A stretch of DNA of 64,000 nucleotides from Escherichia coli (GCF_011045215.1 NZ_CP049201.1); one strand, 5' to 3'; shown: positions 14,629 to 64,000, numbered from the stretch's first letter. Made by a program: numbers and translations. The notes: generated by a model from the letters alone, not told the origin.

Positions 14629-14845
14629 CAGCTTTTCCTTACAGAGGGTGAATAAAAAAGCCGGTACCCACAAATGTGGATACCGGCAGGTACAAAACAG
14701 CATGGTCAGATAAAGTGGTTTTTCCCGGACATAAATGCTTCCCCTCTCTCATCCGCCAGAGAAGTATCAGTCCGTTGTGTGCAATTCCGTTCTGCATGAT
14801 GAAGAGATTCAGCTGCCTTTTCGCAGGCCATTAACCACTACAAAC

Positions 14846-22088: not shown

Positions 22089-22100
22089 AAGGGAAAGCAC

Positions 22101-23821: not shown

Positions 23822-23839
23822 GGGTTTAAGGAGCGCCTT

Positions 23840-43400: not shown

Positions 43401-46400
43401 ATTCTGCGTGTGGCGATTGATAAACTGCAGGGCGTTCAGCGTAATGGCAGAACCACTGCGAATCAGACCAGAGACGTTGTCCACAACGCCCCGTACACTG
43501 TCGAACAGAATGTCGCCCACAGACTGTATCTGTCCGTGGCTGTTCTGCAGGCCTCCCGTATGCAGACGGAGTTCACCTTCACTGACCAGCCGGCCACCCT
43601 CACGGTTATCCAGCGAGGTGGTGCTCAGGTCAGCTGTCGTTTTCGCCCCCACGGTCCCGCCCCGGTTATCCATTGCTCCGGTACTGACAGTCAGTTCCTG
43701 CAGGCTGTTCAGCGTACCCCCTCTGTTATCCAGCGTCCGGCCTGCGCTATTAATGCTGATGCCTTTCCCCTGAATAAGACCGGACTGATTGTTCAGCGCC
43801 AGACTGTTCCGGCCGGGCAGACCGGTCGCCACAATCTGACCATTCGCCACCACCTGACCGGATGTATTGTTAACCACGCCTGCAGTCAGGGACAGCGCAT
43901 CTCCCGACAAAAGCACACCGGCAGTGCTGTCCAGTGTGCCGGCATTCAGCGTCATCGGGCCCTGACTGATAACCCCGCCCCGGTCACCACTGTTACGGTT
44001 GCTCAGTGTGTCAGCACGGAGATTCAGTGTGGCACCGCTCTGTATCAGACCACCTGCATCATTGCTGATATCCGTCGAGGAAAGGGTCAGTGACTGCTGT
44101 GCCACCAGTCTGCCGCCCTGATTATCAGAGCGGGTGACATCCAGCCTGCTGTTACCGTTGCTGACCACCGTCCCCTGCTGATTTTCCAGCACATTCAGGT
44201 GCGCATTCAGGTCCCCGCCGGCGGCAAGCGTCCCTTCCTGATTACTGACATCGCCACCACTCAGCAACATATCCGTCCCGGCCTTCAGTGCGCCTTTCTG
44301 GTTCATCAGCGTACCTGACGATATCTGTAATGACGCCTGACTCCCCAGCACGCCCTGACGGTTATCGAGCGTTCCGGCGTTCAGGGTCATATCCTTCTGA
44401 CCCGCCATAAATCCCTGCTGGTTATTCAGCATACCGGCCCGTACTGTCAGGGTACCGGCGCTGCTGATACCACCCCGTGTTTTCGTGTTCCGGTTACTGA
44501 GAACCCCGTCCTGTACATCCAGCGTCATGTCACTGCCGGACTGAATCAGACCATCATCAGAGACCAGTTCGCTGCCTGACACAGACAGCGTTTTCTGTGA
44601 AAGCAGTCTGCCGGACGTATTATCCAGCGCACCATCCAGCGTCACGGACAGCCCGTCAGACACCACCGTACCCTGGTGGTTATTCAGACTCCCTGCCGAA
44701 ATATCCAGCCTGCCGGCGGACTCCATTCGTCCCTCAGTATTGCTGACAGCCTGCTGTGTTTTTATCCTGCCCGTTCCGGCAGCAGCTGAAATCAGTCCGT
44801 TGTCGTTATTCAGTGCCTGTGTATTAATCAGGATGTCACGGCTGGCAATCAGACTTCCCTGCTGGTTATCCACGGCGCCGGTTGTCCTCACCTGCAGACT
44901 ACCTGACTGCGCCGCCTGCACTTTCCCCCTGCGATTATCAAGGCTCAGTGCATCCAGGCGCACCGCGCCATTTGCCGCAAGCAGCCCTTCCCGGTTATCC
45001 ACACCTCCCGGCAGGTTCAGTGAAAAATCCCCTGTTCCCGTCTGAATCAGTTTACCCCTGTGGTTTGACAGGCTCTGTGCTGATATCTGCAGTGTGTCGG
45101 CATTTATCGTGCCGTCATTATTGCTGAACTGCCCGGCAGTCCGGGCGGAAAGCGTACCGGCACTCAGTTGCGCATTTTGCGTGAACAGATTTCCGCTGCC
45201 TGCATCCAGCTCAGTATGTTGTCCCTGTATCCGGCTGTTGCTTAAATCCAGCCCCTGCCCCTTCAGTTGCATGTCCCCACCGGACAGAACCTGTCCGTGT
45301 GCCGCCAGTTCGCCGGTGGTACTGACAGTCAGGTTGCCCGCTGCCGCCAGACGTCCGTCATCTTTCACCCCGGCGGCCAGCAGACTCCGCTCACCGCCGG
45401 TCAGACGCGCTGTCTGAATCCGGGTGTTGCGACGTGATGCCACAGAGCCTGTATGGGTGAATACACCATCACTCTGTATCTGCGTATCCTGCCCCGCATA
45501 AACAGAACCACTGTTATGCAGCTCCCGGGTTGTCACCAGATGCACATCCGTTTTCGCACTGATACTGCCACTGTTTTCAATTCGTCCGTCAGCCGTCAGG
45601 GTAACCGCCCCTGCCTGCGCACCAATATGACCGGCGTTACGAACACCCACCCCCGTTTCCGTACCGACAAGGCGAATTTTTCCGGCATACATTCCACCAA
45701 GGCTGGACACATCCAGCGCCACCTGTGGCTGCGAAGAGGCATCAGCGGCTTTTTTCTCAGTCTGCCCGTGTGCAATATCCACATTGTTACGTCCGGTGGT
45801 CACTTTCAGGTCCTGCGCCCAGATACCCGCATTAATCTTCACAGACCGGGCAATGATATCGGTATAATCCGTGCGCGAGGCATCCATCCCTTTGCCCGTA
45901 ATCTGAATCTCACCACGTTCAACACTGAATCCGGTCAGACTGCCGTTTTTCATCTGAGGCTGCCCCGTGGTCAGCGTGGCCCGGTTCGCATTAATAAAAC
46001 CGCACCCGTCGCAACTGATGCCGGCCGGGTTCGCAATCACCACCTGCGCCTTTTTCCCGGCAACCTCAACAAAACCGTTCAACTGGCTGGGATTGCGACT
46101 GTTCACTTCATTAAGAATGATTCGGGCCTCTCCCTTCGCCAGCCACGGGTTACCGGCAACCATGCCGCCCAGTTGGGTCTGCACATTTTTATGCGAGTTA
46201 TTCAGAATGACACCCTGATGACTGACATCAAACTGACTGTAAGTATTGTGCGATACCCCACCTGCAGAAGGTGTCTGGATATTGACCTGAGGAATGCCGC
46301 TGGCTGTCTGCGTAATCGTGGGCTGCTGATGCCCCGGTGCGCCATGGTCTGCGACAATGCCTGCAGCACTGACAGAATGCACCATCCCCGAGGCCAGCCA

Positions 46401-46565
46401 CAGGGAGAATGCAAGCGATGTGACACGGCAGATACGTTGCCTGCGTGGATATCCTGTACGGGAGGAGGGTGATGCACCGGCGCGACCGGAACGGGCAATA
46501 TCTGCCACCACCATCAGCATTCCCCGGGCTTTGTTAAAAATAATGCGGTAACAATTTTTGTTCAT
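37491..46565 (-). CDS. cdiA: CdiA contact-dependent growth inhibition exoprotein (two-partner secretion TpsA), 3024 aa; CT toxin 37494..38246 after VENN at 38247..38258
   Basis: Extended signal peptide MNKNCYRIIFNKARGMLMVVADIA, TPS domain, long hemagglutinin-type repeats, VENN motif (TTVENNYLSSKQ) 251 codons before the stop. Confidence 0.9.
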   Translation of the reverse strand: MNKNCYRIIFNKARGMLMVVADIARSGRAGASPSSRTGYPRRQRICRVTSLAFSLWLASGMVHSVSAAGIVADHGAPGHQQPTITQTASGIPQVNIQTPSAGGVSHNTYSQFDVSHQGVILNNSHKNVQTQLGGMVAGNPWLAKGEARIILNEVNSRNPSQLNGFVEVAGKKAQVVIANPAGISCDGCGFINANRATLTTGQPQMKNGSLTGFSVERGEIQITGKGMDASRTDYTDIIARSVKINAGIWAQDLKVTTGRNNVDIAHGQTEKKAADASSQPQVALDVSSLGGMYAGKIRLVGTETGVGVRNAGHIGAQAGAVTLTADGRIENSGSISAKTDVHLVTTRELHNSGSVYAGQDTQIQSDGVFTHTGSVASRRNTRIQTARLTGGERSLLAAGVKDDGRLAAAGNLTVSTTGELAAHGQVLSGGDMQLKGQGLDLSNSRIQGQHTELDAGSGNLFTQNAQLSAGTLSARTAGQFSNNDGTINADTLQISAQSLSNHRGKLIQTGTGDFSLNLPGGVDNREGLLAANGAVRLDALSLDNRRGKVQAAQSGSLQVRTTGAVDNQQGSLIASRDILINTQALNNDNGLISAAAGTGRIKTQQAVSNTEGRMESAGRLDISAGSLNNHQGTVVSDGLSVTLDGALDNTSGRLLSQKTLSVSGSELVSDDGLIQSGSDMTLDVQDGVLSNRNTKTRGGISSAGTLTVRAGMLNNQQGFMAGQKDMTLNAGTLDNRQGVLGSQASLQISSGTLMNQKGALKAGTDMLLSGGDVSNQEGTLAAGGDLNAHLNVLENQQGTVVSNGNSRLDVTRSDNQGGRLVAQQSLTLSSTDISNDAGGLIQSGATLNLRADTLSNRNSGDRGGVISQGPMTLNAGTLDSTAGVLLSGDALSLTAGVVNNTSGQVVANGQIVATGLPGRNSLALNNQSGLIQGKGISINSAGRTLDNRGGTLNSLQELTVSTGAMDNRGGTVGAKTTADLSTTSLDNREGGRLVSEGELRLHTGGLQNSHGQIQSVGDILFDSVRGVVDNVSGLIRSGSAITLNALQFINRHTQNTGQGLEAQTIHITTQDLDNQEGSILADRALTVMADRTLSNNDGVLSSGATLSVSGRQLAFSNRDGVVKAGQSVSVDVGQLGGDGKLLSPGDITLKSNTAFSNSGQTIANGNLTLSVNGDVSNTGSLLAGSRLDLNSIRLENTEKGEISAGQTWLNVTDTLLNRGLIDGKYTHLQANTLTNSGTGRIYGDAVGVSAATFNNLDENGVAATLAGRERVDLGVQTLNNRTHSLIYSAGDMHIGGMLDANGAATGKAGVLNNHSATIEAAGSLTLSAGQINNVNDHFTTERVVVSTEKVTEYQHRGSDVRWNAKDEGVFIDNNSSDGLLNLNTPDDTGHNNDRFTKYEYTRTVEETRVKDSDPGKILSGAGMTVVADKLLNDKSQVVAGGLLDMQAGDVENVSVSGERHVTDKGTSTYYYRIKRKNKNDRQGERISPYEPPPVIQTITLKPGELTSHGQVQGSQVTLSPLKPQGTDVQTGLTGNVDATVAVTDRIPLRPVVSAGEPVILLPGQQFEVSAPQGSIHVAGPDTRLPDSSLFKTNPAVNVPYLVETDPRFTNQKTWLGSDYMQKAFSQNGDNMLKRLGDGFYEQRLIREQVVALTGQRYLDGYSNDEEQFKALMDAGIAFGKQYNLTPGVALTAEQMALLTGDIVWLVNTTVTLPDGSTQTVQVPQVYARVKPGDVNSAGALIAGRDMVMKLDGDLFNSGKLAGKQAVQLSAENIHNQAGTIQGANVSLTARTDINSTGGLLQATDSLLAMAGRDISLTTTTRTAQRDAGQNHFERTSIDSVAGVYVQNDQGRLVLQAGRDMNLTAATVVNQGKDSLTQLSAGRDMTLSTVTTSAQDNITWDKNNRLSQGVTQNTGSTLAGNGDVTLTAGRDMTSQAASLSAQKGLALMAGHDVTLTGAQNTRSLDEYHKVTGNSGMLSKTTTTTHDVTDRRTMTGSELNGDTVSIGAGHNLNVTGSSVAGDNRVSLAAGNNLSIGTLTESNRETHLKQEKKSGLMSSGGVGFSVGSQSLKVTDTATDTTQKGSTVGSVHGDVSLQAGNRLTVNGSDLIAGRDMALSGKEVSITAATDRHVQTHTVEQKTSGLTLALSGTAGSALNTTVETVQAAKSAGNSRLEALQGVKAALSGAQAVQAGRLAEAQGNQKENNNTVGISLSYGSQSSKSEQQSEQTVAKGSTLTAGNNLSIQATGSGVKGVDGDLTIQGGQIKAGNNVLLQANRDVNLVSAENTSKLEGKNTSSGGSVGVGIGVGPGGPGFSLSASANQGKGSEKGNGTTHTETTVDAGNRLTIISGRDTTLTGAQAGGETVKVDAGRHLTLTSEQDSDRYDSKQQNASAGGSFTFGSMSGSASVNLSRDKMHSNYDSVQEQTGIFAGRGGFDVTTGQHTQLNGAVIASTATADKNRLDTGTLGFSDTENRADFKTEHQSAGLSTGGSVAGNFLGNMANNLLVGANHEGHADSTTQSAVSAGNITIRDTQSQKQDVADLNRDVAHANQTLSPIFDREKEQQRLQQAQLIGEIGNQVADIARTEGQIAGEKAKRDPAALNQARAELEAAGKPYTEQDVAQRAYNNGMAASGFGTGGKYQQAIQAATAAVQGLAGGNLSAALAGGAAPYIAEIIKQTTPDGAGRVAAHAVVNAALSLAQGKNALAGAAGAATGEVVGMIATQMYGKPVSELSETEKQTVSTLATVAAGLAGGLVGDSGASAVAGAQSGKTTVENNYLSSKQIDAWSAEMKSCQAKGGDCGGIIKKYEELSTAQQKQLISDCAASPATCQQKYGDVLTDSLAVKQAIDRALGEDIPIKMVYDLTATFAQQMQAEGVVATNKVSEALQEEYGLDEVQAGIVASAAASAFGGISKVKGNSQPKIEQILKPEKNWETARNKALDLVGNLGADSKPVIGRLEVSAGNGKVIGRQSSDGKVGWRVDYDPEKGTHINIWDYSQGKGPGKAVKQVIPFEGNEKSFETILKQLNR

Positions 46566-46580
46566 TCTGATAAACCTGAC

Positions 46581-47108
46581 TTATCTCTCCGGCACATCCA
46601 CAGCAAGCGGGTGCTGCACACGCCACTGGCGCGCCTCTTCACGACTGACCTGTGCACCCCGGAAATTCATCACCCGCAACCCGGTCTGCTGCCCACGGTG
46701 GTACAGCGAACGCCAGCACAGACGGGGAAAAATATCCTGCCGGACAAGACGACTCATATCCGGGGTATGTCCAAAAGGGGCAATCCAGTCACAGACCCAC
46801 ATCCGGTCGCCGCTGTTCCAGTCCGACTGAGGCATGAGAATTGCCGGCTGCGTAAGATAACGCGCCTCTGCCTCCGGGCTGAGCCAGGCCTGGCTCATGA
46901 AGAAAACCGGTCGCCCCTGCTCTGTTGCCACCACATACTGTCGGTGCTTAATCACCGGCAGCAGCAGGTCCGGCAGGGTATGCAGTGGCGCATCACGATG
47001 CAGGGGGGAGTGCATCCACAACCAGACGGCCGCCCCCAGGACTTCCGCCTCATTGACCGGCTCACCGGAATACAGGGGACTCAGAACGTCATATTTCCCG
47101 TTACGCAT
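46581..47108 (-). CDS. cdiC: CdiC, HlyC/RtxC-family toxin-activating lysine acyltransferase
   Basis: 175-aa ORF between the TpsB and TpsA genes; size and position typical of RTX-activating acyltransferases. Confidence 0.7.
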   Translation of the reverse strand: MRNGKYDVLSPLYSGEPVNEAEVLGAAVWLWMHSPLHRDAPLHTLPDLLLPVIKHRQYVVATEQGRPVFFMSQAWLSPEAEARYLTQPAILMPQSDWNSGDRMWVCDWIAPFGHTPDMSRLVRQDIFPRLCWRSLYHRGQQTGLRVMNFRGAQVSREEARQWRVQHPLAVDVPER

Positions 47109-47117
47109 GAAACTTTC

Positions 47118-48857
47118 TCAGAAATCCCGGAACAGATTAAAACCGGCTGTCACATCACTCGTCATAAAACCCGCCGGCTTTGAAAACGGACGACCGATGA
47201 AAACGTCATAATCCGTACTGAACAGTTGCCCCCTCAGCCCCACAACACCACCAGCCAGATGACGTCCCACCAGGTATTCACTGCCGGCTCCCCCCACCTC
47301 GCCGTAATCCATTCCCAGATATAACTCCTGCTCCGGCAGTGGCGTACGCCAGGCCAGGTCGTTGCGGATATACCAGCCGTTACTGGCATTCAGCGTTCGC
47401 TCCCCGTCAAAACCACGAACCGTCCAGCGGTTACCGATGGCAAACTGTTCCTGTGGGGTCAGCGGGGTATTGCTCAGCTGGCGCTGATACCGGAAGGAAT
47501 AACTGAAGGGCTGCCCTGCAAGGGTAAAGGGCAGATTAAAGGATGCATTCAACTGCAGGATCTTACTGAGCGCCGTTGCCTCACCGAACGTTTCTTCCGG
47601 CGCCGGCTGTGCACCAAACCAGCGGGTTCCCCGTTGCCAGCTGACACCAGCATCCAGTGTGGCCTGAGAAATATAATGACGGTGCTGCAGCCCAAGTCGC
47701 CAGGCCGCTGTCTGCCGGCGCTGCACCTGGATTTCCGTATCATTAATGTAGTTACGCGACCTGCGGGCCTGAACATCGTAGGTCAGCACCGTTTTCTGCG
47801 TCCCGTTACGGTGCAGTACCCGGCTCAGCTGCATACCCAGATTCTGACTCTCGCCACTGTACTGGTAATCCTCAACCGCACCAGCTACCGTCTGATGGTA
47901 ATCGTAATCACTGGCGGTGACGGAAAACTGCCAGTAGCCGAAAGGCACAGAGTAATGGGCCGTGTAGTTTTTACTGCCCTTACCCCCGTAATGTGGAAAA
48001 TTACGGGTGGCAGAAACATACAGCAGGTCACTCAGGGAAAAAGGATTATCCAGAGAAAATGTTATACCACCGAGATAACGCCCTGTGCTGCGGGTACCTG
48101 AATCATCAAGCGAAAACCCCAGTCGCCAGTATTTGTCCTGTTTGCGGGTAATAAGAATGTCACTTTCCCCTGGCTGCTCACCGGGTACAATTTCCATATC
48201 AGCCTGCACACCCGGCAGTCGTTGCATATTCTCCAGCCCCTGCTCAATGTCCCGTAAATCCAGCAGAGAACCTTCGTGTGCCGGGAATGAGGAATACAAC
48301 TGAATATAGTCATCACTGTCCGGTGTCAGACGCACATGTCGCACAACACCGGGAATAACAACCAGCCGGAGGATACCGCTTTTTAAATCCTGCGAAGGTG
48401 CCAGAACACGGGTGGTGACATAACCATGATCGACCAGACGGTTCTGCAATGTACTCATCAGCAGATTAATTCCTTTCGCCCCCAGGCAATGCCCGACCGC
48501 CCCGTTGGCGATTTTTTGTAAAGGCAGCCAGTGTGGTAACGCATCAGCCCCCTCCAGTTCCGTCTGTTTAATCTGAAAACAGGGCGTTTCAACAGGAAAA
48601 TTAATCTTACGGGCAAAAGAGCCAGGTGCAGAAAGGCGAACATCAGGGGCTGAAGGCGTCAGTTGTTGCTCAAGGGCTTCCTGACGCTGCTGCTGAATGA
48701 TAAATGCATTATCTCCGCTACGCCGGACATCCGCGGCCTGAAGAGATAAAGGCGATAATAAAACAGACATCAGTGTCAGTGACAGCAAGGACGGACAGCG
48801 CCGGAATACGCTTTGTTCCTCAGCCCTCTCGTTCCTGCAACATAATTTTCCAGTCAA
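47118..48857 (-). CDS. cdiB: CdiB, TpsB/FhaC-family outer-membrane transporter
   Basis: 579-aa ORF with signal peptide ([12 protein letters not shown]), POTRA-like region and C-terminal beta-barrel ending in F; true start may be an internal ATG ~87 nt downstream. Confidence 0.85.
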
Positions 48858-52662: not shown

Positions 52663-53166
52663 TCAAAAACCGCTGTAGCCAAAGTTACGCTGGCCTGATG
52701 CTTTAGTGTCGAGCTTCGTCAAATAATCCAGACGTACCAATAAGCGCTGGTACTGCTCAGGGAAATCAGGATCGTTAATATCCAGGATGTAACGCCCATT
52801 AGTAGGGAAATGAACTAATCCCTGGTGATCTTCCAGTTCCAACCCTAAGGCACTGTACCAGGCTCCGGTAATTAACCCTCTCAGGGTGTCAGAGCGCTCA
52901 TAGTCTCCCAGGTGGTAATAGGCGTCTTTGTTAAACAACAGGCAGACGTGATAATGACATTTAAAGGACTGCGTATATTCTTTCGCCCAGATAATACAAA
53001 CCGACGTTGCGTAGGTGCGTTTGCCTTGTTGTTTTTTACGGTGTTGATCTGCATTAATTTTCGCATTCAGCGAGTTACGGAAACGAGATATTTCTCCGGG
53101 GGTCAGGTTAGGAAAACAGGTAATGGTATCCCCGTTGTCAATCACAGGAGGGTAATGGAGATCCAC
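52663..53166 (-). CDS. YagK/YfjJ-family (inovirus Gp2-type) protein, short form
   Basis: CHYHVCLLFNKDAYYHLG resembles the conserved HYH-x-LF-x-x-DAY motif region of YfjJ-like proteins. Confidence 0.6.
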   Translation of the reverse strand: MDLHYPPVIDNGDTITCFPNLTPGEISRFRNSLNAKINADQHRKKQQGKRTYATSVCIIWAKEYTQSFKCHYHVCLLFNKDAYYHLGDYERSDTLRGLITGAWYSALGLELEDHQGLVHFPTNGRYILDINDPDFPEQYQRLLVRLDYLTKLDTKASGQRNFGYSGF

Positions 53167-53280
53167 CCGTATTGCTGTTATTCTGGAAGTATTTTTAATA
53201 TTCGTATTGATAGTTCTCAGAGATATATCACACTCTAGATATTTTAATTAAGTATCAGTTCGATATCGGCATATTGTACA

Positions 53281-53644
53281 CTACCTCTGGTAGATGATGA
53301 GATCAGATACAGGGATCAACTGACGGTGAGCGCAGTCCCCACATTTTATCCAGGGCTTACTGCATATTCCCAACAGCCATTCGTTAGCCAGGTAGACGAA
53401 TACCCTTTCCGCTGGTTTTGCTTTCCCATCGAAGGGCCCATACATCATCACGCCCGCGAAACAGTCGACAAAATAACGCAACTTTCTCATCCGTGGATAA
53501 TACGAAAACGCACTGCACAGGGCTCTGCGGTTTACGTCGCCATTCAATCCCATGAGCTTCAAGTAATGAGACCAGCCGGGTATTTTCTGCCCGCAGTACT
53601 GCTAGTTCATCGCTGTCAGATTTATAAACCATATGCGTTATCAC
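53281..53644 (-). pseudogene. Frameshifted 5' remnant of a larger gene
   Basis: Two overlapping minus-strand ORFs in different frames (53384..53644 and 53281..53562) that read like consecutive parts of one N-terminus; no continuation downstream. Confidence 0.4.
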
Positions 53645-53738
53645 TTGTACCTGTCTCCCGGCGGCACCACGACTGAAATTCGTGTGAAGGCAAATCCACG
53701 CGATAACTTACGATAGTTCGGACATAAGCCCCCATAAT

Positions 53739-54302
53739 TCAGTTATGTCGTGGTCGGCCGCGGTTACTTTTTTCGGGAAGCCTGCTACGCCCCAGAATAA
53801 TACCGTGTTCTTTCTGATCCTGTTTCGCCAGATAGCTAAGGGCGTAACGTAAGTCGTCTACCGCAGATTTATCACTATAGTGAATTACATGATCGATACG
53901 CACCGGGTATTTATCTTTAGCCCGGCACAGGTGAAAATAACCCTCCCCTTCCGTGATCCGCCTCCAGATATCTCCCAGTTGCCTGGATATCTGATAAGAG
54001 TTCTTGTGACGTTGTCCATCCAGATAGCCGATAAAATGAATATGAAGCCCTTTGTCTGGTGTATATTCCATTACCCAGTAATATCCCGCCAACATCGTCT
54101 GGGTTTCGCTAAGTAAGCGGTACATTTCCATACACATACTGTGCTTACAGGAAAGACCAAAACTGGGCGTGTCTTTCCTGTAAGCAAAATCAATTCTGAA
54201 AGGTAACAGTTTAGAAAAACGTTGAAACAGACCTTCCATGTGTTCATTCACATCTTTCAGAATCGCGAAATTCATTTCGTAATTGGGATTGGCATTATAC
54301 AT
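53739..54302 (-). CDS. YagK/YfjJ-family (inovirus Gp2-type) protein
   Basis: LPFRIDFAYRKD ... GLHIHFIGYLDG pattern as in YfjJ-like island proteins. Confidence 0.6.
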   Translation of the reverse strand: MYNANPNYEMNFAILKDVNEHMEGLFQRFSKLLPFRIDFAYRKDTPSFGLSCKHSMCMEMYRLLSETQTMLAGYYWVMEYTPDKGLHIHFIGYLDGQRHKNSYQISRQLGDIWRRITEGEGYFHLCRAKDKYPVRIDHVIHYSDKSAVDDLRYALSYLAKQDQKEHGIILGRSRLPEKSNRGRPRHN

Positions 54303-55240
54303 TTTATAGTCCTTACTTTATAAAACTGACAGGAAAGTGGAATTACATAAATACTGAGAGTACAGAAACGCCGTACCGCGGCATTAATAAAAGAGGTAAC
54401 CAGCAGCACAGACAACCTGATAAAACTGTTTCGTATTACCTCATTACAGTAATAGGGTAATGATTCAGAATACAGTAAGACTTTCTTAAACTGAGGACCA
54501 GAACGAATTACAATAAAAAACACACCTCATATAATTGAGTTTAAGAAAGCACCATTCAATTACTTACAGGATATAATCTGATCTTCACAAAAGTCAGTAC
54601 CGGGTAGCCACAGACAACATCGCTATTAATATTGCCGTACCATTAAGTAAAAACAGAGACTCTGCAGAGAGAGCCTACAGATATTTAACCTCACAATAAG
54701 AAGATTATTTCATACAGAAAATATTATATTTACCTATGCTTATAAACTGTAACGGAGCCATAACATACTCTAATAGTGTTCCGGTACGTAACCAGTGTTA
54801 AGTGCGTACAAGACAACATAACATAACAGATTTATGTTCCCAACATTACACCACATAATTCACCATACAGCTTCCCCCCATATGCTTCACTGCGTAGTGT
54901 ATGGAGATATATGTATTACACACATACAGAATACTTAGCATAGAGAGGAGTGACATTACGATAAAAGAGACAACATAACAGATCACATAACTCCCACTAA
55001 TAATACTAATTAACCTAAATTATTTATTGAACACGAAAACAATGAAGGCCCCACCTCACCTCAGACTAAAGCCGACAATATCCTGAGCAACACTCTATCC
55101 AATAGTAAATAGTGGTTACACCAGTTATATTTACTGACTGACCTGTACCAGAGTTTTCTAATACAACGCTGACATGGTAAAGACATTAGTCTCCTCCGCA
55201 AGTAGCAGAGGAGACTATATGTACTCAACGATTAAGTCGT

Positions 55241-56692
55241 TCAGAGGTCAAAGTTAGGTGCGACACACAACGTTTTTCCCTCAATAACCGGTACAACTCT
55301 GTTTTGTTCATACAGTAAATCCAGTAACCAGTTGATTTTATCCTTTTTCCGGAAACGGTTCGGGCCACGCTGTAAAATGTCATTTTTTTTCATACAGAGG
55401 ATCCCCTTCTCAATGCAATAGCTTTTTATCCAGTTGAAAAGTTCAAGCTCCTCTGGAATGAGTCGCACAGGTACGGTCAGGGCGGAGTTGTCAAAAGTTA
55501 ACGGATTAGACAACCGCACATACTCATTACCGTACCATATTGCTAATTCTCTCGCCATTTCTGCAGTGTAAGGGGAAATCTCCCCCTCTTCACCGCTCGA
55601 ATGGTAAATAAGTCCTGCCAGTCTTGCCATATACTCTGCATTTTTAGCAGCATATTCCCGGCAATGTCTTAAAGGCCCCAATCCCCCCAGCTTCGATTCC
55701 ACATCATTGTAATAATCCGTCCAGATTCTGGCAGCCTGAGGAGAAAAGTGAAGGCAACGTCGTTCACCACTCATCGCCAGACTTTCATCAATAAGCTCAT
55801 TGATCCTCTCTTCAAACAAATCCTGATACTGTGATGAATAATTATCTCCGGTTATTATCCTTGTCCCCTGCGTTGATGTTGGTTGACACATCAAAAACCT
55901 TGCATGATGTCCTGACGTTTTCACAAGTTCTTTTTTTCGCGTACAAAAACCTTTGTGGTAAACATCAGGCTGAATCATCACCGATATCGTCAGTCTTGGC
56001 TCCTTCAAATTAATTCCGGGAGATGATTTCCTGTCGATGAAAAGAGAACCTCCATCCCACAAAGTGTTAATAATTCCCAGTTTACTCATGGCCCGGCTGT
56101 CAAAAATTACCCCCCCTTCACTGGATACAAGAGCAAAAGAGCGATTGCTATCAGAGTAATATTTTAACATTCCCTCTATCGTTGTCTCATTAAAAATTGT
56201 TCGACGTATCTGCGGCGGAACAGGAGATTTATTCAGATGCGTTTCAAGCTCTGATTCTGTTGCCTTGTAATCTTTACCGGCACGAATCTCTTTATGAAAT
56301 TTTGATTCCAGCGCTTTTTGTTTTTGCTCCCATATTTCCTTTTCTGTACTGTAATTCTCAACCAGTTTCGCGTATTCTTCCGCCAGGGCTTCATCCCTGA
56401 GATAAAATGCTTTCATAAACACTTTATCCACGGTCGTTTTCCTTTCACCGGAATCAGCCAGAATCAGAGAGTAAAGATTAACAGGCCCATGTAAATTTCC
56501 AGGTCTGCACACGTCAATCTGATTCTGACAGGCAATTGAGATCGCTGTTAATGCGGATGTTGCCACCATAGCCAAAGGTGCCTGTGTATTTTTTTGAGTT
56601 TCAATTATTGCATTTCTCACCAGCGGTGGTAGTGCATATATCGGATAAGGATTTTCTGGTGCAAGTAAGCACATAAAAGCCTCTCTTTTCAT
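55241..56692 (-). CDS. DUF3987-family protein (YfjI-like), usual partner of AlpA in P4-type islands
   Basis: 483-aa ORF downstream of alpA; start codon uncertain. Confidence 0.65.
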   Translation of the reverse strand: MKREAFMCLLAPENPYPIYALPPLVRNAIIETQKNTQAPLAMVATSALTAISIACQNQIDVCRPGNLHGPVNLYSLILADSGERKTTVDKVFMKAFYLRDEALAEEYAKLVENYSTEKEIWEQKQKALESKFHKEIRAGKDYKATESELETHLNKSPVPPQIRRTIFNETTIEGMLKYYSDSNRSFALVSSEGGVIFDSRAMSKLGIINTLWDGGSLFIDRKSSPGINLKEPRLTISVMIQPDVYHKGFCTRKKELVKTSGHHARFLMCQPTSTQGTRIITGDNYSSQYQDLFEERINELIDESLAMSGERRCLHFSPQAARIWTDYYNDVESKLGGLGPLRHCREYAAKNAEYMARLAGLIYHSSGEEGEISPYTAEMARELAIWYGNEYVRLSNPLTFDNSALTVPVRLIPEELELFNWIKSYCIEKGILCMKKNDILQRGPNRFRKKDKINWLLDLLYEQNRVVPVIEGKTLCVAPNFDL

Positions 56693-56892
56693 TAATGGGT
56701 TAGTAAAATAGCAGCAACTCCCGCTACAATAGCGAAAATAGCTGCTATTCAGACCTGATGCTCTGAGAAATACTGAGCATTTGTAGATCTGATGTTTAAT
56801 AAACCGATAAGGTTAATTCAGTGCAGACTGTATTATTTACCACGAAATATCATTCATATTTCTCATTCTTAATACCTCCAGAAATTATTTCA

Positions 56893-57090
56893 CTAATACC
56901 TTTCCCCCGGTCTTTTCCCTTTCTCCAGAACCATAGTGTAAATATTAACGGCCCCACGTAAATTTCCGGGGCTGCATACGTCAACCTGATTCTGACAGGC
57001 AATTGACATCGCTGTTAATACTGACATTGCAACCAGAGTCAGAGGTACTTGTTTATTGTATTGAGCTTTAATTATTGCCTTCCCTATCAT
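56893..57090 (-). pseudogene. Duplicated 5' fragment of the DUF3987 gene
   Basis: 65-aa ORF ...LTLVAMSVLTAMSIACQNQVDVCSPGNLRGAVNIY... paralogous to residues ~35-80 of the 55241..56692 product. Confidence 0.6.
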
Positions 57091-57316
57091 TGATGGTCAC
57101 GTATATACTGAATACGGCATATCCGGTTTGATGTAAGACATAAATGCTTCCTTTTTCGTAATACGTTTCGGTTATAGCAGCAATTACCGCTACAATAGCG
57201 ACAATAGCTGCTCTTTCAACAATGAATGCTGGAAATTCTGTTTATCAATTAAACTTCTGGCTAAATTGTTCTTATGCTTCTTTTTCCTCCTGAGGTGATC
57301 ACGTGATGACAAAAAC

Positions 57317-57625
57317 TTATCTGCTCATGGTCATATCTGAAGAAAGCGTATGTCGCACTTCGTCATTAACACCTTTGACTGCTGATCTGGCAGGTACAGT
57401 ATGTAAAGTAAGCCATTCGTCAATAGCTGATGAACGCCAGCCCACAGAACCACTACCAAGACGTACCGGCCTGGGGAAGGTTGCATCGTAGTATTTCGAT
57501 AACGGATTCATTTTTTCGTAAATTGTCGAACGAGATATACCTAACAATTGGCTCAGTTCAGGCATCCGTAAGATGCGTGAAGGAGTCCAGCAGTATCCGG
57601 ATTGATCTGGCATTTTATCCCCCAT
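57317..57625 (-). CDS. alpA: AlpA-family phage-type transcriptional regulator (excisionase-like)
   Basis: LRMPELSQLLGISRSTIYEKMNPLSKYYDATFPRPVRLGSGSVGWRSSAIDEWL matches the AlpA HTH core; start uncertain (ORF extends to 57697). Confidence 0.75.
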   Translation of the reverse strand: MGDKMPDQSGYCWTPSRILRMPELSQLLGISRSTIYEKMNPLSKYYDATFPRPVRLGSGSVGWRSSAIDEWLTLHTVPARSAVKGVNDEVRHTLSSDMTMSR

Positions 57626-57836
57626 AGTGTGGTGAACTGTCGTTACAGTTTGTATTCCCCGGGTAAATTTGTCTGCGTAAAAAAATGGGCTGAGCAAAAA
57701 GACAATAAATAATTAAAAATCAATACGATAGAAAACAACAGCATTATTGTTATTTTACTTTCTCCTTATCACTGTCGATTCTCATTATCATTCATTGGTA
57801 AAAAAACAGCAAAAGAGGCCCTGGTAATGACTCCAG

Positions 57837-58229
57837 TCAGTAGTACAGTGTTTTCGATAAATGAACCAATGGCTTTTCGTGAATTTCCAGGGAGCGTGAA
57901 AAGCAAATCGTTTTCCGGGCTGGTCGTTTGATGTGAGTACGAAGTGTCAGATTGTTGCGCTCAATGCGCCGGGTAAATATCTTGCCGACAAGATGCTTAT
58001 CCTGTGGCATTTCTCTGGTATAACTGCTCCGGTTGTCTCTGGTTATCATGCCTGTGGAGAATGGCTTCAGGAGTTCCGGCAACTCACGACATGTTTCATC
58101 AGTGCGAGGACCAAAAGTGTAAGCCAGCACACCTCCAGATTTGGTGTTATACGCATACCAGTGCCACTGCTGACGAGCTTTGTTTTCGACAAAACTCCAT
58201 TGTTCATCAAGTTCGCAGATAAGCGCCAC
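57837..58229 (-). mobile_element. IS1-family transposase (InsB-like) remnant, diverged and truncated
   Basis: ICELDEQW...YAY...RIERNNLTLR resembles the IS1 InsB core; no intact InsA or terminal repeats identified. Confidence 0.45.
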
Positions 58230-58725
58230 ATCGGCACTGACGTCTGGAGATGTGGTTACTTTGCGTGGTGAGCGTTTTATAAAGTGAGAATGACGGTGTT
58301 GATATCCACCTTCAGCGTTCTGGAGCTATCGCGAACCCGACTCCGTTATGAACCATTTCAACAATTTGCTCTTTGATGCCTGGTTTTCGGGTTTCGTAGA
58401 TGTAATTCAGTTGAAATACACACATTTGCAGGATTAGCACTGGAAACGCTCATGATCTGAGGTGCTGTGATCATAATGGTACACTTTATAGGAATTACAG
58501 CGGGGAGAATGTACTGTAACTGTTGCCATATGGTCTCCAGATACCAATAGAATATCACATTAATCTATCGTCAGAAGGCATCACCGGGGCCTTCTGACAT
58601 AATCTGTTAATACGTGTACTATTACCCTGTTCAGAAAATATTGATTCAAAAATGAAAACCAGTTAACAGAAAAGCAAAATGATATAATGTTAAAATTTTA
58701 TATAGTGCAATAAAAGGAGAATGTT

Positions 58726-60543
58726 ATGTATAATTTTATCACTATAATGTATGATGTCTTTTCATGTTTTGGTGTTCTGGCTAAAAACCAGAATACCCGT
58801 GACATCCGAAATATTAAAAATTTTTCCTCACATCAACATTCACTGGGCGACATGTTTGATGAATTAATAAACATTATTGATAAAGAACAAGTATTGAGTA
58901 CAGAACAACGAAAAGTTATATTTAGGAGATATGAAGATCTCTATGTTAAGCTAATGCACTATTCTGTTTTTACAGACAAAACACATCAAATAATAAAACA
59001 AAAATATTTTAATGACATTGTACCAATGATTCTCGCACTCGACATCAGGAACACATATCGCCCGGATAATGAGATGGCATTTTACTATCATATTCATTCT
59101 TTTCTCACTCAGATACCGGATAATGAGGATGATATATATCATGCTGCAAGGACATATCTGCGAAATTACATTAAGTTATGTTTATCCGGATACACACCAG
59201 CGAATGCGCATTTCAAAGATATCTTTGATGGCGTATATGAATTCATTCGTAATATTCGCAAAAACAGTACACCAGGAAAAACAAAACTTACCGCAACTAT
59301 CAACACATGCAAAGAAACCTGTAAACATCTGCTTTATTTAAGTAATGAAGACAAGGAAAAAATAATTTCTGACTTAGATAAAATTCAAGTTGCATGTTAT
59401 TATCTCACCATATTACTGGCTTTCGAAAGACGAACTTCATTAACAAGCGCCCTGGCAACTTTATATAAAATGCTGATAAGCGAAAGAGAAGTTTCAGAAT
59501 ATGAATGCCAGTTATTATATTTAACCAACCCAATAGATGTAATGAATATACTGAACAAACACATATATTACTTTCCTAATGAGAACTCACCATTTTATAC
59601 ACTGAAAATTGACAGTGCATTATCGTGGGAGGCCATTGACGCAATACGAGACTATAGTATTTCTGATATTTATCTTTATCCTGAACAAAAAACAATAAAT
59701 TGTGTCGTTGAGATTGAAAACATTGTCTTTGGCGGTTACATTTATACATTGAACAACGGCGTCACATTACAAAACATAGAAAACACTTTAAAAGATTCTT
59801 CATGCCATTATGTCTTAAATGGCTATACAGAATTTGTTAACTGTTTGATACAACTTACTTCAGGAAAGACTGAAAGTGTTCATCGCACCATCAATAAACT
59901 GAACTATGAGAAATTACCTTTTGGATTTATCATTGCCGCGTTTGCTATACTAAAGATAGCATTTAAAATAAAATTCAGTAAAAATCATGTAAATATCCGA
60001 GCATTATTAAATGACATCAATTATTTTATGACTTATCAGGGCGAGTCCATTAACCTTATTTCACTGGATCACGAATACCCAGAGTCCTGTCTTCAAAATG
60101 ACACAAACACATATTTATTAGGAAGAGTAATATTTCTGTATAACTCAATGATTTATAAGTTCATAAACTGTCAGGAACATGAAACCAATAACATTCACTC
60201 AGCTATGATAAATAACCTATTACAGGAAGTTGATATAGCCCTTGGTAAAATAAATAACATTATAGACAGCAGAAATATATCAACCCCCCATGAACTAGCA
60301 AATATTCTTACCCGCGAAAAAATACTTACAACACGGGAAAAAAAAGGAAACCTGATAAGCCTGTTTGATGGATTCACTTTATTCCATTGTGTTGGAATGA
60401 TAACCTTTCTTATCCATTATCTCAGAACACCTGAAGAAAAAGTTGAAAATATATTTATGTTATATGGTGCAGATAAAAACAATAAACTACGCAGAAGACT
60501 GATTTATGACGCACTAGGAATAATTCAGTCTCAGCAGGAGTGA
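58726..60543 (+). CDS. Large hypothetical protein (605 aa), very AT-rich, no recognised domain
   Basis: Long uninterrupted ORF with Asn/Ile/Tyr/Lys-rich composition; convergent with the integrase gene. Confidence 0.6.
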   Translation: MYNFITIMYDVFSCFGVLAKNQNTRDIRNIKNFSSHQHSLGDMFDELINIIDKEQVLSTEQRKVIFRRYEDLYVKLMHYSVFTDKTHQIIKQKYFNDIVPMILALDIRNTYRPDNEMAFYYHIHSFLTQIPDNEDDIYHAARTYLRNYIKLCLSGYTPANAHFKDIFDGVYEFIRNIRKNSTPGKTKLTATINTCKETCKHLLYLSNEDKEKIISDLDKIQVACYYLTILLAFERRTSLTSALATLYKMLISEREVSEYECQLLYLTNPIDVMNILNKHIYYFPNENSPFYTLKIDSALSWEAIDAIRDYSISDIYLYPEQKTINCVVEIENIVFGGYIYTLNNGVTLQNIENTLKDSSCHYVLNGYTEFVNCLIQLTSGKTESVHRTINKLNYEKLPFGFIIAAFAILKIAFKIKFSKNHVNIRALLNDINYFMTYQGESINLISLDHEYPESCLQNDTNTYLLGRVIFLYNSMIYKFINCQEHETNNIHSAMINNLLQEVDIALGKINNIIDSRNISTPHELANILTREKILTTREKKGNLISLFDGFTLFHCVGMITFLIHYLRTPEEKVENIFMLYGADKNNKLRRRLIYDALGIIQSQQE

Positions 60544-60564
60544 AACGTTAAAACAGGCAAATTG

Positions 60565-60610
60565 TTTTTTATAAACAGGAGATTGTTGAGTAATCCCCTG
60601 TTTATAAAAA
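60565..60610. terminator. Bidirectional terminator between the 605-aa gene and int
   Basis: Perfect inverted repeat tttataaacagg ... cctgtttataaa with 17-nt spacer flanked by T/A runs. Confidence 0.6.
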
Positions 60611-60730
60611 TACGCTTTCCTGACGATCTGATAATTATCAGCTCAATACATTTGACATAAAAGCGGTTCCTTAATTACTACTGCCACGATCACATATCAA
60701 ATCATGATCGTACAATATACATTTTCACTA

Positions 60731-61933
60731 TTATTTATTCACAATTTGAGACATCACATAATCCGCCCATGCCTGCATCATCGGTACACGCTGCTCCAGT
60801 AGATCAGTGCGATGATATGCCGCCTCAACCTTATTTTTCAGCGTATGAGCGAGCGCCCTTTCCGCCAGATCCCGCGAATACCCCTGTTCACTACACCAGT
60901 CCCTGAATGTTGAGCGAAAACCATGTGCCGTGGCAACTCGCCCCGGAATGTCACTGACGGCTTTCTTTTTACGCAGAAAACTTGTCAACACCATATCGGA
61001 AAGGATCTGCTGCTTTCTGGGTGAAGGGAACACCAGTTCATCATGCAGGCCACGTATATTTTCCAGAATGTAAATAGCCTGCCGGGATAAAGGAACACGA
61101 TGCTGTAGCCTAGCTTTCATTCTTTCTGCAGGTATAGTCCATACCCGCTTATGAAAATCAATTTCAGCCCAGCGCATTCCCCTGGCTTCGCCCGAGCGAG
61201 TTGCTGTAAGTATCACCATTAATAACAGTGCGCGGGTAACATTATAAGGTTCATCACTATACACACTGGTCGCCACAAAAAGCGGTAACTGCCTCCAGGG
61301 CATTGCGGGTTGGTGTTCATCACGTCCTCTTGTCTGCTGAGGAAGCAAATGGTCAACCACATCAACAGGATTTGCCACACAAAAACCGTGCGCCCATCCC
61401 CACTGCATAACAACATGAATGCGCTGTTTAACCCGGCTTGCCGTTTCTGACAAGGTTAACCAGACTGGACGCAATGTTTCTGCCACGTCCGCAGCCGTAA
61501 TCGAATCCAGCGTTTTTGCTCCCAGTTGAGGAAACGCGTAATTCTCAAGCGTCGATAACCACTGCCTTACATGCTTTGGATTTTCCCATCCAGGAGACAG
61601 TTCTGCATGTACACGCCTGGCTGCATCGGCAAATGTTGGGATAACGACTTTCTCAGATTCAGCCTTTTTAATCTCCAGAGGATCATCACCTGCAGCAAGT
61701 TGCTCTCGCATTATCCGGGCAGTACGTGCAGCTTCAGCAATACTGACCTCTGGGTAAGTTCCCAATCCAGCATTACGTCTTTTTTGTGTCACCGGACTTA
61801 CATAACGAAAAACCCATTTCCCCCGCCCCTTTACTGAAGAAGGATGAAGGGTCAGTCCGGTAATTCCCCCATGGGGCAATGGTTTGTCATCAGGTTTGAT
61901 ATGTCTTGCTTTCGTATCCGTCAATACTGCCAT
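60731..61933 (-). CDS. P4-type tyrosine integrase
   Basis: 400-aa ORF with catalytic R...HxxR...Y core (ATAHGFRSTFRDW; C-terminal tyrosine region) adjacent to the tRNA-3'-end repeat. Confidence 0.9.
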   Translation of the reverse strand: MAVLTDTKARHIKPDDKPLPHGGITGLTLHPSSVKGRGKWVFRYVSPVTQKRRNAGLGTYPEVSIAEAARTARIMREQLAAGDDPLEIKKAESEKVVIPTFADAARRVHAELSPGWENPKHVRQWLSTLENYAFPQLGAKTLDSITAADVAETLRPVWLTLSETASRVKQRIHVVMQWGWAHGFCVANPVDVVDHLLPQQTRGRDEHQPAMPWRQLPLFVATSVYSDEPYNVTRALLLMVILTATRSGEARGMRWAEIDFHKRVWTIPAERMKARLQHRVPLSRQAIYILENIRGLHDELVFPSPRKQQILSDMVLTSFLRKKKAVSDIPGRVATAHGFRSTFRDWCSEQGYSRDLAERALAHTLKNKVEAAYHRTDLLEQRVPMMQAWADYVMSQIVNK

Positions 61934-62090
61934 ACGCTAATTCCCGTCACTCTGGTATGCCATCCAGTATGCCATTAGTCTCTCGCTTCACTAAGAATAC
62001 ATTAGATAATATCGGACAACAAAAAGTGTAATACATTGTTTATAATGAAATTATATAACACCCCTGGATTAAGTCAGATTTATTTCAGGC

Positions 62091-62107
62091 GGTCCCCCTC
62101 ACCGCCA
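62091..62107. repeat. Direct repeat of the serX 3' end (island distal att site)
   Basis: ggtccccctcaccgcca; ccccctcaccgcca matches serX 3' end at 3502..3515. Confidence 0.8.
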
Positions 62108-62149
62108 TATTTAAATAAATATCCTCCGGCATAGCCGGAGGTTTTTCAA

Positions 62150-62870
62150 ATGCGCCTATAAGGCTCTCTTACCAGCCGCGCCCTAACAGGCGCACACGAT
62201 CTGACATTTGCATCCAACTTCGTTACTTACGGCCCGTAAACGGGCTGCCCGGATAGGGAATCGATAACTGCTCTCCCATTTCATCCTCTTCAAGCTGGTG
62301 CTTTATGTAATCCTGTATCTTCGCCGTGTTCTTACCCACCGTATCGACGTAGTACCCTCTGCACCAGAACTCCCTGTTCCTGTATTTGAATTTCAAATCC
62401 CCAAACTGCTCATAAAGCATCAGACTGCTTTTCCCTTTCAGATATCCCATAAAGCCGGATACGCTCATTTTGGGCGGGATCTCCACAAGCATATGGATAT
62501 GATCTGCACAGCATTCAGCTTCAAGAATCCGTACGCTTTTCCACTCACACAGCTTTCTCAAAATACTGCCTATTGCTCTACGCTTCTCTCTGTAGAACAC
62601 TTGTCTTCGGTATTTTGGCGCAAAAACTATGTGATATTTACAGTTCCATCGGGTGTGCGCTAAGCTCTTTTCGTTCCCCATTGGGACCCCCTTTTGATTT
62701 CTTGTTTGACACTTGCAGTTGCCAGACCGCAAGGTGTTTTAACAAATCAAAAGGGGTTTTAATAACTGGCTCAAAGCTGAAAGCTTTCCGGAACCCCCAG
62801 CCTAGCTGGGGGTTTTCTGTGCACAAGAAGAGCCCGTACGAAAGTACGGGCTTTTTTTTCGTATATTGCA
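62150..62870 (-). mobile_element. IS200-family insertion sequence (approximate ends)
   Basis: Contains a Y1 HUH transposase gene and a hairpin agcccgtac-gaaa-gtacgggct followed by T-run at 62831..62861; ends estimated from typical ~0.7 kb size. Confidence 0.7.
62223..62681 (-). CDS. tnpA: IS200 transposase TnpA (HUH Y1 family)
   Basis: MGNEKSLAHTRWNCKYHIVFAPKYRRQ...ADHIHMLVEIPP... near-identical to recalled IS200 TnpA. Confidence 0.9.
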   Translation of the reverse strand: MGNEKSLAHTRWNCKYHIVFAPKYRRQVFYREKRRAIGSILRKLCEWKSVRILEAECCADHIHMLVEIPPKMSVSGFMGYLKGKSSLMLYEQFGDLKFKYRNREFWCRGYYVDTVGKNTAKIQDYIKHQLEEDEMGEQLSIPYPGSPFTGRK

Positions 62871-63010
62871 CACACCGGGTGCCCCCGCCCACGTCTGTTA
62901 GGGCGAGGGGAAATCGTGCACATCAACTGTCTGATTGCTCAGTCAACAATCAAAATGCGCAAGAGAGTACAGAACATATATGCGCTATCTGGTCACTTCC
63001 TGTAACTTCC

Positions 63011-63997
63011 TCACTTATTAAAATGCCCCCAACGGAAATACATGTCACATGCCATCATAAAATCGTTATGCCAGAGGAACCGACAATGGAAAAAATAGTA
63101 AATTAAGCACGGTACATAGCAGAGTAAAAAATAGGCTTCAAACCAAATCCGCCATTCCACAAGCGTTGCCAATACCGACACCAGCGTAATCCACATCACT
63201 TCAATAACCAGCAATATGAATAACCGAAGCCAAAGCGGCTTGGCAAAAAAGGTCGACAACGCATTTTCACTGGAGAAAAACAGATCGATTTCCTGCAAAA
63301 AAAGCCTGCCCAGAAAAGCGTACCGCTTGGAGAAGCGCAGAAAAAACAGATTAATCGCCAACACTACGCCACAAAGAATGAGCAATGCAATTATCGATTT
63401 AAACGTTAACCACTGCCCCTCTGTCACAAAAGAGTTACTGTTACGCAACGGGCTGATAGTAAGCAGGTTAACAACCGTTGAGATACAAACCGAAAGCAGC
63501 ACATAGCGAGTCAGACTTTTATATTTTACTTTTTTCGCTACTGAAATAGCGACCTGCTTGACATAACTGGTGCGGATCATCCGAAACAACAGAAAGATGA
63601 CCAACGGCCCAAGTAACGAAATCAGGAACAGCGCATATAACGAGGGTAGAAGCTGGTATAGCCCCCAACTCATTGCACTCAACATGATTAACGACAGAAA
63701 TCCTGCCACCAGAGGTTGTGTAAGAAATAATTCTATTTTGTGGTTCTGCTTTTTCTTAAACCACGAAAAATCGATATTCTTCGTGACGCATTTATAAGCC
63801 CAGTACGCCTTGAGATCAAAAATAAAATTATACAGCACCAGGGCCAGAATCCCACTAACTACACCAATATCCTCTGATGGAAAAGTAAACCCTGCATTTT
63901 TCCAATAAAAGCCTATCAGAATAAGTCCAATAGCATAAATGTATATCAGATTTCGTTTATCCTGAAAGCGAATAAAAGTTAAATAATCAGGAATCAT
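63011..63997 (-). CDS. ycdU: Inner membrane protein YcdU
   Basis: 328-aa multi-TM ORF; K-12 neighbour of serX on the side opposite ghrA. Confidence 0.75.
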
Positions 63998-64000
63998 TTG

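Follow-up and report, generated by a model that had tools for sequence, protein, structure and literature searches.

An uncharacterised, fast-evolving gene paired with alpA in enterobacterial genomic islands

In staphylococcal pathogenicity islands (SaPIs), the master repressor Stl is encoded between int and the xis/pri/rep operon and is transcribed divergently from that operon; its position is constant and its sequence extremely divergent between related islands, a divergence driven by the recognition of helper-phage proteins. In Gram-negative phage-inducible chromosomal islands (PICIs), AlpA is the helper-induced master activator (PMC11773190), and in PIME1 integrative mobilizable elements neither excision nor replication proceeds without a luxR-family gene oriented divergently from alpA (bioRxiv 10.64898/2026.01.12.698999). 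PICMI satellites of Vibrionaceae carry iolg/icg genes, which fall into 13 unrelated families, one of them needed for excision (PMC10803314). Here we describe gene X, an uncharacterised gene encoding 605 amino acids (aa) in a 64,000-nucleotide (nt) stretch of an Escherichia coli genome (GCF_011045215.1 NZ_CP049201.1; the whole stretch is hereafter the window), in which it lies between an integrase gene (int) and alpA on a tRNA island (Table 1). Gene X is present in about one-fifth of complete E. coli genomes and is translated, yet it is annotated as 'hypothetical protein' everywhere it is listed. We find that gene X very probably belongs to the island backbone, as a partner of the alpA module, and is not hotspot cargo. 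It is probably a part of the AlpA control system or of the conflicts between that system and phages, and we tentatively propose for it a role in AlpA-driven excision and replication, as a sensor or regulator.

The place of gene X beside alpA

We compared 14 lineages from Enterobacterales and Aeromonas that are less than 50% identical to one another in gene X (contexts P0024, P0025, P0026, P0027, P0030, P0034, P0035, P0037, P0051, P0052 and P0054, together with Providencia and Enterobacter loci, and Xenorhabdus and Kluyvera loci in which X is close to that of P0025). In 14/14 lineages, that of the window included, gene X is divergent from an operon of alpA (PF05930) and a DUF3987 gene (yfjI); the presence of X itself in all 14 is circular, because the lineages were found by searching with X. 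The pairing persists down to 19% identity (Aeromonas; metagenomes). An inovirus-Gp2-type gene (YagK/YfjJ_C) comes next after DUF3987 in most loci that extend far enough, and the alpA–X intergenic gap measures 25–250 bp in 13/14 lineages, the window being interrupted by an IS1 insertion.

The first-pass annotation of the window had taken gene X for candidate cargo in an integrase-proximal slot; a reading as variable cargo of such a slot finds no support in the neighbourhoods of the homologues. The layout in the other arrangement is int → (cargo) ← yfjJ ← yfjI ← alpA / X → (cargo). Any integrase visible in these relatives is found past the distal end of the alpA operon, 2–7 kb from X, and their recognisable defence cargo (a CHAT protein, type I restriction–modification, Abi_alpha/Abi_C, SLATT/GAP1/DO-GTPase and trypsin-AAA) sits either between int and yfjJ or downstream of X. 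In the window, the four-gene unit is inverted relative to int by comparison with those relatives, which is the arrangement found in CP4-57. Given that X keeps with alpA through this inversion, the proximity of int in the window is incidental to the orientation of the module. Among all contexts looked up, gene X was not seen outside an alpA context and had no phage matches; matches labelled 'plasmid' were limited to four E. coli records, all non-mobilizable, of which two exceed 1 Mb.

The region shared by the two genes is also conserved. An alignment of ten loci places a TTGCCA-type −35 element and a −10 element ahead of GTCCCCGTAAAAAAATGGAAACCAACCGGAG and the ATG of X, and by our reading of this alignment an inverted copy of the −35 element, located just ahead of the −10, pairs with it in an operator-like manner. 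In the window, the promoter-region part and the first ~20 nt of the 5′ untranslated region (UTR) are kept beside alpA, followed by ~1 kb, including an IS1 remnant, before X. This looks like an IS1-bearing insertion of ~1 kb into the 5′ UTR of X, possibly with target duplication; a piece resembling the ancestral 5′ UTR, AAAAATGAAAACCAG, is found at ~58650–58668, ~60 nt 5′ of gene X. Such an insertion would have cut X off from its ancestral promoter, so X must have acquired a new one, presumably in the AT-rich 196 bp directly upstream, which contains promoter-like sites at 58594–58622 and 58679–58706. A query spanning the IS1 junction was covered to at least 80% by 1033 records, corresponding to nearly all E. 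coli copies, which indicates that the insertion predates the spread of this allele.

An intact, expressed gene without characterised relatives

Gene X is real, intact, expressed and under purifying selection. Its start codon is preceded by a good ribosome-binding site, and two peptides of its product were detected by mass spectrometry in strain EDL933. The G+C (GC) content is 32% overall and 0.31–0.34 along the open reading frame (ORF), compared with 0.42–0.50 in int and alpA/yfjI; third codon positions have a GC content of 0.30. Residues I, L, N, Y and K are abundant in the protein. The DNA of gene X is present in 1030/5426 complete E. coli genomes (~19%), mostly at ≥99% identity, carriers including enterohaemorrhagic (EHEC) O157:H7 strains, the probiotic Nissle 1917 and ATCC 25922, a reference strain. 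Compared with a 94%-identical E. coli allele (locus L019), gene X has a ratio of nonsynonymous to synonymous substitution rates (dN/dS) of 0.20 (dS 0.21, over 1611 nt); the values in the same comparison are 0.22 for yfjI, 0.17 for the Gp2-like gene and 0.05 for int.

These observations bear on whether the gene in the window's E. coli lineage could be a decaying, functionless relic of an immobilised island. The severing of X from its ancestral promoter by IS1 would fit such decay, as would a duplicated yfjI 5′ fragment at 56893–57090, which points to local rearrangement, and the existence of damaged alleles: minority E. coli alleles are truncated to 542–546 aa by a 1-nt deletion at nt 1612 (L019 8001–9629), and the copies in Xenorhabdus sp. 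BG5 (L013 9959–11754) and Enterobacter cloacae (L017 5868–7739) are frameshifted. Loss of gene X therefore happens, yet the full-length form prevails, its 90%-identity cluster holding 8897 member sequences (partial entries included). With purifying selection, a good ribosome-binding site and the two EDL933 peptides also against it, the relic reading is largely refuted already and we regard it as very improbable.

The description of the gene in the first-pass annotation as a long, intact, AT-rich ORF, convergent with int and with an IS1-family remnant on its other side, proved accurate. Its 'clean bidirectional terminator' was right in that the 187-bp spacer between gene X and int contains a strong, near-palindromic hairpin (ΔG −26.1 kcal/mol, z −6.0), and overstated in that this AT-rich hairpin carries no more than a UUUAU tract on each strand and received no call in a terminator scan. 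It is plausible as an atypical bidirectional terminator.

Profile searches placed gene X in no characterised family, in keeping with the absence of recognisable motifs noted in the first-pass annotation. Pfam gave no match to gene X even at E ≤ 10, and no family at E ≤ 0.001 for 27 homologues; PADLOC-DB v2.0.0 gave no defence family at E ≤ 1. The top NCBIfam match scored 14.8 bits against a cut-off of 259, the top PHROGs match had an E value of 0.4, and PDB sequences were negative or noise. Word-indexed homologue searches, even when queried with a profile, returned only relatives of ≥91% identity, and the family was found by an exhaustive HMMER search of 1.84 billion cluster representatives. 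This yielded 33 proteins at E ≤ 0.001, about 15 of them full length and 19–35% identical to gene X, and a sub-alignment search for loci recovered six. The homologues come from E. coli, Citrobacter, Klebsiella, Kluyvera, Edwardsiella, Morganella, Providencia, Xenorhabdus, Enterobacter and Aeromonas.

On the 27-sequence alignment, AlphaFold returned a confident all-alpha model of ~30 helices (predicted local distance difference test (pLDDT) 83.6; predicted template modelling score (pTM) 0.83), whereas prediction from the single sequence was unusable (pLDDT 37). Foldseek found nothing for this model in BFVD at E ≤ 0.001, and comparison with the PDB gave no meaningful structural match. In AFDB50, only the family's own members were retrieved, in entries that are 'uncharacterized' or automatically named, which extended the family to Salmonella, Shigella, Hafnia, Pantoea, Leclercia, Aeromonas, Tolumonas and Burkholderia. 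The product is thus predicted to belong to an uncharacterised family with a fold unlike solved structures. The structural comparison suggested in the first-pass annotation accordingly led only to uncharacterised relatives; with no homology to a characterised family, an expressed protein and most copies intact, its expectation of an undescribed function has held.

Conservation along the protein is highest in residues 1–150 and 376–575 and lowest in residues 250–375. The conserved motifs are HxFAxxMY, NFSxHQxFF, FYKYEQLYN, FYxHIHxFL, NIR, LPxGYL...ALKIKL and NNxTIMRSIxxYN, and the alignment contains no invariant catalytic-type residues and no invariant acidic or histidine constellation. HEPN-type Rx4–6H and other catalytic motifs were considered and rejected, none being conserved when the alignment was inspected by eye. 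The sole hydrophobic stretch, residues 397–415 (Kyte–Doolittle 2.0), corresponds to the motif LPxGYLxSAFxxIxLALKIKL. Some fragments carry an automatic UniProt name that implies an integral membrane protein, an assignment that we rejected given that homologues have K, R, D, S and N in the stretch. Because the stretch is not conservedly hydrophobic and residues 401–417 form a confidently modelled helix (block pLDDT ~95) within the all-alpha model, we read the product as a cytoplasmic protein, a prediction accompanied by an N-terminus that is not signal-peptide-like.

Some relatives are extended at the N-terminus. The 866-aa protein of Aeromonas veronii (P0052; L025 2467–5067) has an extension of ~300 aa that weakly resembles the N-terminal part of an IS481 transposase (NCBIfam, E 2.8e-12, below the cut-off), and a Pfam scan of this protein gave nothing; a 930-aa E. 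coli relative (AFDB A0A3L0W2L1) is named 'helix-turn-helix domain-containing protein'. Such extensions may represent a domesticated DNA-binding module fused to the X domain.

Hypervariability and the possible roles of gene X

Gene X diverges, or is swapped, far faster than the module to which it is tied. Loci L008 and L011 share 93% identity in AlpA, 91% in YfjI and 92% in DNA over 2.9 kb, and X is only 39% identical between them; the DNA identity collapses 50–100 nt into X and returns at a 36-bp palindrome 3′ of its stop codon. Likewise, L002 and L006 are 66% identical in YfjI, 78% in AlpA and 37% in X. The GC content of X is 4–10 points below that of yfjI or alpA in 9/9 loci. When a slot is fixed and its occupants are homologous yet hypervariable and recombining, this is the hallmark of a gene that determines conflict or specificity, and fixed position, exchanged alleles and low GC together mark X as a conflict interface.

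A conflict gene could be an autonomous one. In that case X would be a single-gene defence protein of the abortive-infection type, directed against phages or other mobile genetic elements and held at a fixed position as rexAB is beside cI in lambda, and its fast divergence would reflect changing phage-recognition specificity. The low GC content, the swapping of alleles between near-identical backbones and the wealth of defence cargo in these islands would all suit such a protein, as would the persistence of intact X in ~19% of complete E. coli genomes though uncoupled from alpA. PADLOC, however, gave no match, X has no effector domain, no catalytic motif and no structural similarity to known defence proteins, and, unlike promiscuous defence genes, it was unseen in any phage, plasmid or non-alpA context; it was also found in every lineage examined, rather than alternating with other systems. 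We consider autonomous defence somewhat unlikely, though it is the strongest rival reading. The anti-phage role raised in the first-pass annotation gained no specific support and survives as this rival.

The same hypervariability would fit a counter-defence or host-manipulation factor that shields the element, or its helper, from host immunity upon activation or new acquisition. A precedent comes from the slot itself, which in CP4-57 holds the non-homologous YfjH: an overexpression screen recovered this protein as one that blocks RcaT, the toxin of retron-Sen2 (bioRxiv 10.1101/2020.06.22.160242). Because YfjH is not related to X, however, the analogy is positional only, and anti-defence proteins are usually small, whereas X has some 600 aa. 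We consider a shielding role improbable.

In the loci with the other arrangement that extend far enough, a perfect palindrome of ~34–38 bp lies directly 3′ of X. Its consensus is CTGCTACAGCTGCTAC-NN-GTAGCAGCTGTAGCAG, with arms made of 2× CTGCTAC and 2× GTAGCAG, and it occurs in L002 (5677–5710), L008 (9925–9960), L011 (10019–10054), L012 (3148–3177) and L014 (11883–11912), and just past the X stop codon in L003, L006, L007, L016, L022 and L025. Changes between loci are symmetric, so that perfection is kept, and no T-run consistently follows. Instead of being a simple terminator, the palindrome could be an origin, an oriT or a protein-binding site used by the Gp2-like/DUF3987 module. In the window, a search for a GCTAC-type palindrome with up to three mismatches found none.

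This site, together with the strict linkage of X to the presumed replication module, raises the possibility that X is an accessory replication or maintenance protein, for example an origin factor acting with the Gp2-like initiator and DUF3987 at the palindrome. Replication proteins normally co-evolve with their partners and origin, yet L008 and L011 combine an identical 36-bp palindrome and 91%-identical YfjI with X proteins of only 39% identity. The window moreover keeps X without the palindrome, and X has no similarity to any replication protein. Such a role seems a shade more improbable still than counter-defence.

A further E. coli island bears on the variety of X alleles. Loci L022–L024 (4639–9824) share the dgcT/ycdU flank by serX and carry a different island with the module in the opposite orientation, in the order int →, ← DUF3987, ← alpA, X′ →. 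Here X′ is 33% identical to X of the window; several deeply divergent X alleles thus circulate within one species.

The reading we favour, while holding it tentatively, is that X is the gatekeeper of the AlpA module. A family of tRNA-integrating enterobacterial islands shares a core operon of alpA, DUF3987 (yfjI) and a Gp2-like gene (yfjJ), with X very probably as a backbone component. Ancestrally, X is divergent from alpA across ~25–250 bp containing a sigma-70-like promoter and a conserved 5′ UTR for X. As the proposed sensor or regulator, the X protein might govern AlpA-driven excision and replication, probably by contacting AlpA or replication proteins and/or via the shared promoter region. 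The rapid divergence of X could then reflect an arms race against phages or plasmids by which the island is induced or exploited, and X in the window would now be expressed from the AT-rich 196 bp upstream. We are led to this proposal by the divergent, shared-promoter architecture, by the exclusive company of alpA in every context sampled and by the precedents of PIME1 luxR, of AlpA in PICIs and of the position and hypervariability of Stl. The lack of an enzyme-like conserved constellation suits an adaptor or regulator better than an enzyme, and in some lineages the N-terminal extension is helix-turn-helix-like or resembles the N-terminal part of a transposase.

Several observations weigh against a gatekeeper. 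No DNA-binding domain was detectable in X itself by Pfam, and the protein has two to three times the size of a typical element repressor. Its GC content, below that of alpA and yfjI in 9/9 loci, would be more usual for an accessory or defence gene. When X is swapped, the intergenic DNA remains conserved, which argues against a sequence-specific repressor that binds operators particular to each allele. Nor is the slot reserved for the X family, since in CP4-57 it is taken by the unrelated YfjH. Finally, E. coli X is intact in ~1000 genomes despite being uncoupled from the alpA promoter region, and hence its function does not require coupling to the alpA promoter.

A bolder form of the gatekeeper proposal, possible though doubtful, is that X represents a new class of all-alpha, fast-evolving sensors of undescribed fold that detect an incoming phage or conjugative helper and trigger AlpA activation or an abortive response. 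If true, this would supply a missing component of how AlpA islands sense their helper, without homology to Stl, LuxR or known immune sensors, and the affected islands would include the O157 tellurite/adherence island and Nissle GEI I. Since alpA is the master switch in PICI-like and P4-type islands and X is its partner, the function of X could explain how these large pathogenicity and defence islands time their excision and replication, or how they interfere with phages. X is also a tractable subject, because numerous natural alleles of this one gene occur on backbones that are nearly identical.

The host island and comparison with known systems

The features of the island are collected in Table 1. 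The window holds a P4-type-integrase island, as the first-pass annotation had it, and this island lies at a tRNA gene: the integrase is of P4 type (its L019 orthologue has Arm-DNA-bind_3/Phage_int_M/Phage_integrase domains), and serX and the 14-bp att core repeat bound the island, which puts the integrase at the tRNA-distal end. The orientation of the tRNA-derived core relative to int is opposite to that in CP4-57 (ssrA → intA →), and int adjoins attR.

Table 1 Features of the island around gene X in the window
Feature	Coordinates	Strand	Remarks
tRNA-Ser(GGA) serX	3428–3515		Island boundary
Inovirus Gp2-type (YfjJ/YagK-like) protein, 187 aa	53739–54302	−	
yfjI-like DUF3987 protein, 483 aa	55241–56692	−	
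alpA, 98 aa, AlpA/excisionase-type helix-turn-helix regulator	57317–57613	−	Ancestral divergent partner of gene X
Remnant of the ancestral alpA–X regulatory region	57614–57692	+	Aligns with the promoter region and 5′ UTR start of relatives
Degenerate IS1-family element	57836–58529	−	Between alpA and gene X; frameshift and internal stop (Nissle 1917 annotation)
AT-rich 196-bp region 5′ of gene X	58530–58725	+	Presumed present source of the gene X promoter
Shine–Dalgarno sequence of gene X, AAGGAG	58714–58719	+	6 nt 5′ of the ATG; read from the sequence
Gene X ORF, 605 aa	58726–60543	+	ATG start
Hairpin between convergent gene X and int	60554–60622	.	AT-rich, near-palindromic
P4-type tyrosine integrase (int), 400 aa	60731–61933	−	Convergent with gene X
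attR core, 14-bp direct repeat of the tRNA-Ser 3′ end	62094–62107	+	Second copy at 3502–3515, inside serX

Between alpA and the full yfjI, the minus-strand fragment at 56893–57090 is a 65-aa ORF that duplicates the N-terminal region of YfjI (PLTLVAMSVLTAMSIACQNQVDVCSPGNLRGAVNIY) and was left behind either by another copy of yfjI or by past recombination. The cargo of the island includes an Ag43/Cah autotransporter (11782–14703, minus strand), a type I restriction–modification system (hsdM, hsdR; 18310–27651, plus strand) and a filamentous-haemagglutinin/CdiA-type protein of 3024 aa, after which comes an ORF of 579 aa (37494–48857, minus strand); the latter may encode the transporter of the CdiA-type protein and has no family match. 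Just outside the island, between attR and dgcT (ycdT), are an IS200/IS605 tnpA (62223–62732, minus strand) and STnc490 (62691–62814, minus strand). An Rfam scan of 53000–64000 found only this IS200-associated STnc490, an IS200 5′ UTR small RNA, and nothing in or around gene X. In the O157-type (SpLE1/TAI-like) form of the island, a 783-aa AEP-primase/DEAD-helicase gene (L019/L021, 500–2851, minus strand) lies just past the Gp2-like gene and may resemble the IS-excision enhancer (IEE).

In its layout, int / X ↔ alpA–yfjI–Gp2, the window mirrors the arrangement of Stl. X differs from Stl in lacking sequence or fold similarity and a detectable helix-turn-helix and in having two to three times its size, and a swap of X leaves the intergenic DNA in place. 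The LuxR-family regulator of PIME1 is likewise a second gene in a regulatory region divergent from alpA, in int–alpA–rep elements of Enterobacterales, but X has no LuxR or other Pfam domain, and the PIME core (repA, trbJ/L, oriT) differs from the DUF3987/Gp2 core of the X islands.

Within CP4-57 of E. coli K-12, YfjH occupies the same slot (intA → / ← yfjH / alpA → yfjI → yfjJ →) and is also uncharacterised. The YfjI of CP4-57 is the closest to that of the window among those compared (42–44%, versus 22–29% for the other X-bearing modules). YfjH differs in length, at 318 aa, and homology between X and YfjH was rejected (hhalign probability 0.1).

With the defence hotspots of P4-like satellites and PICIs and with integrase-adjacent cargo, the X islands share a P4-type integrase, tRNA integration, low-GC genes and a wealth of defence genes. 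The occupants of such hotspots vary and occur in many contexts, whereas X, in a sample collected with X as the query, is present in 14/14 lineages and beside alpA only. Loci with the other arrangement have their variable cargo at different places, either downstream of X or in the interval from int to the distal end of the alpA operon. The iolg/icg genes of PICMI satellites are similar in being function-unassigned genes between int and alpA (PMC10803314), but the iolg genes are small, co-directional with int and overlap it, whereas X is convergent with int, encodes 605 aa and is tied to alpA. At most, then, X would work like Stl or the LuxR partner of PIME1, and it is a member of neither family: gene X represents an uncharacterised family with an undescribed fold, in a known kind of genetic position.

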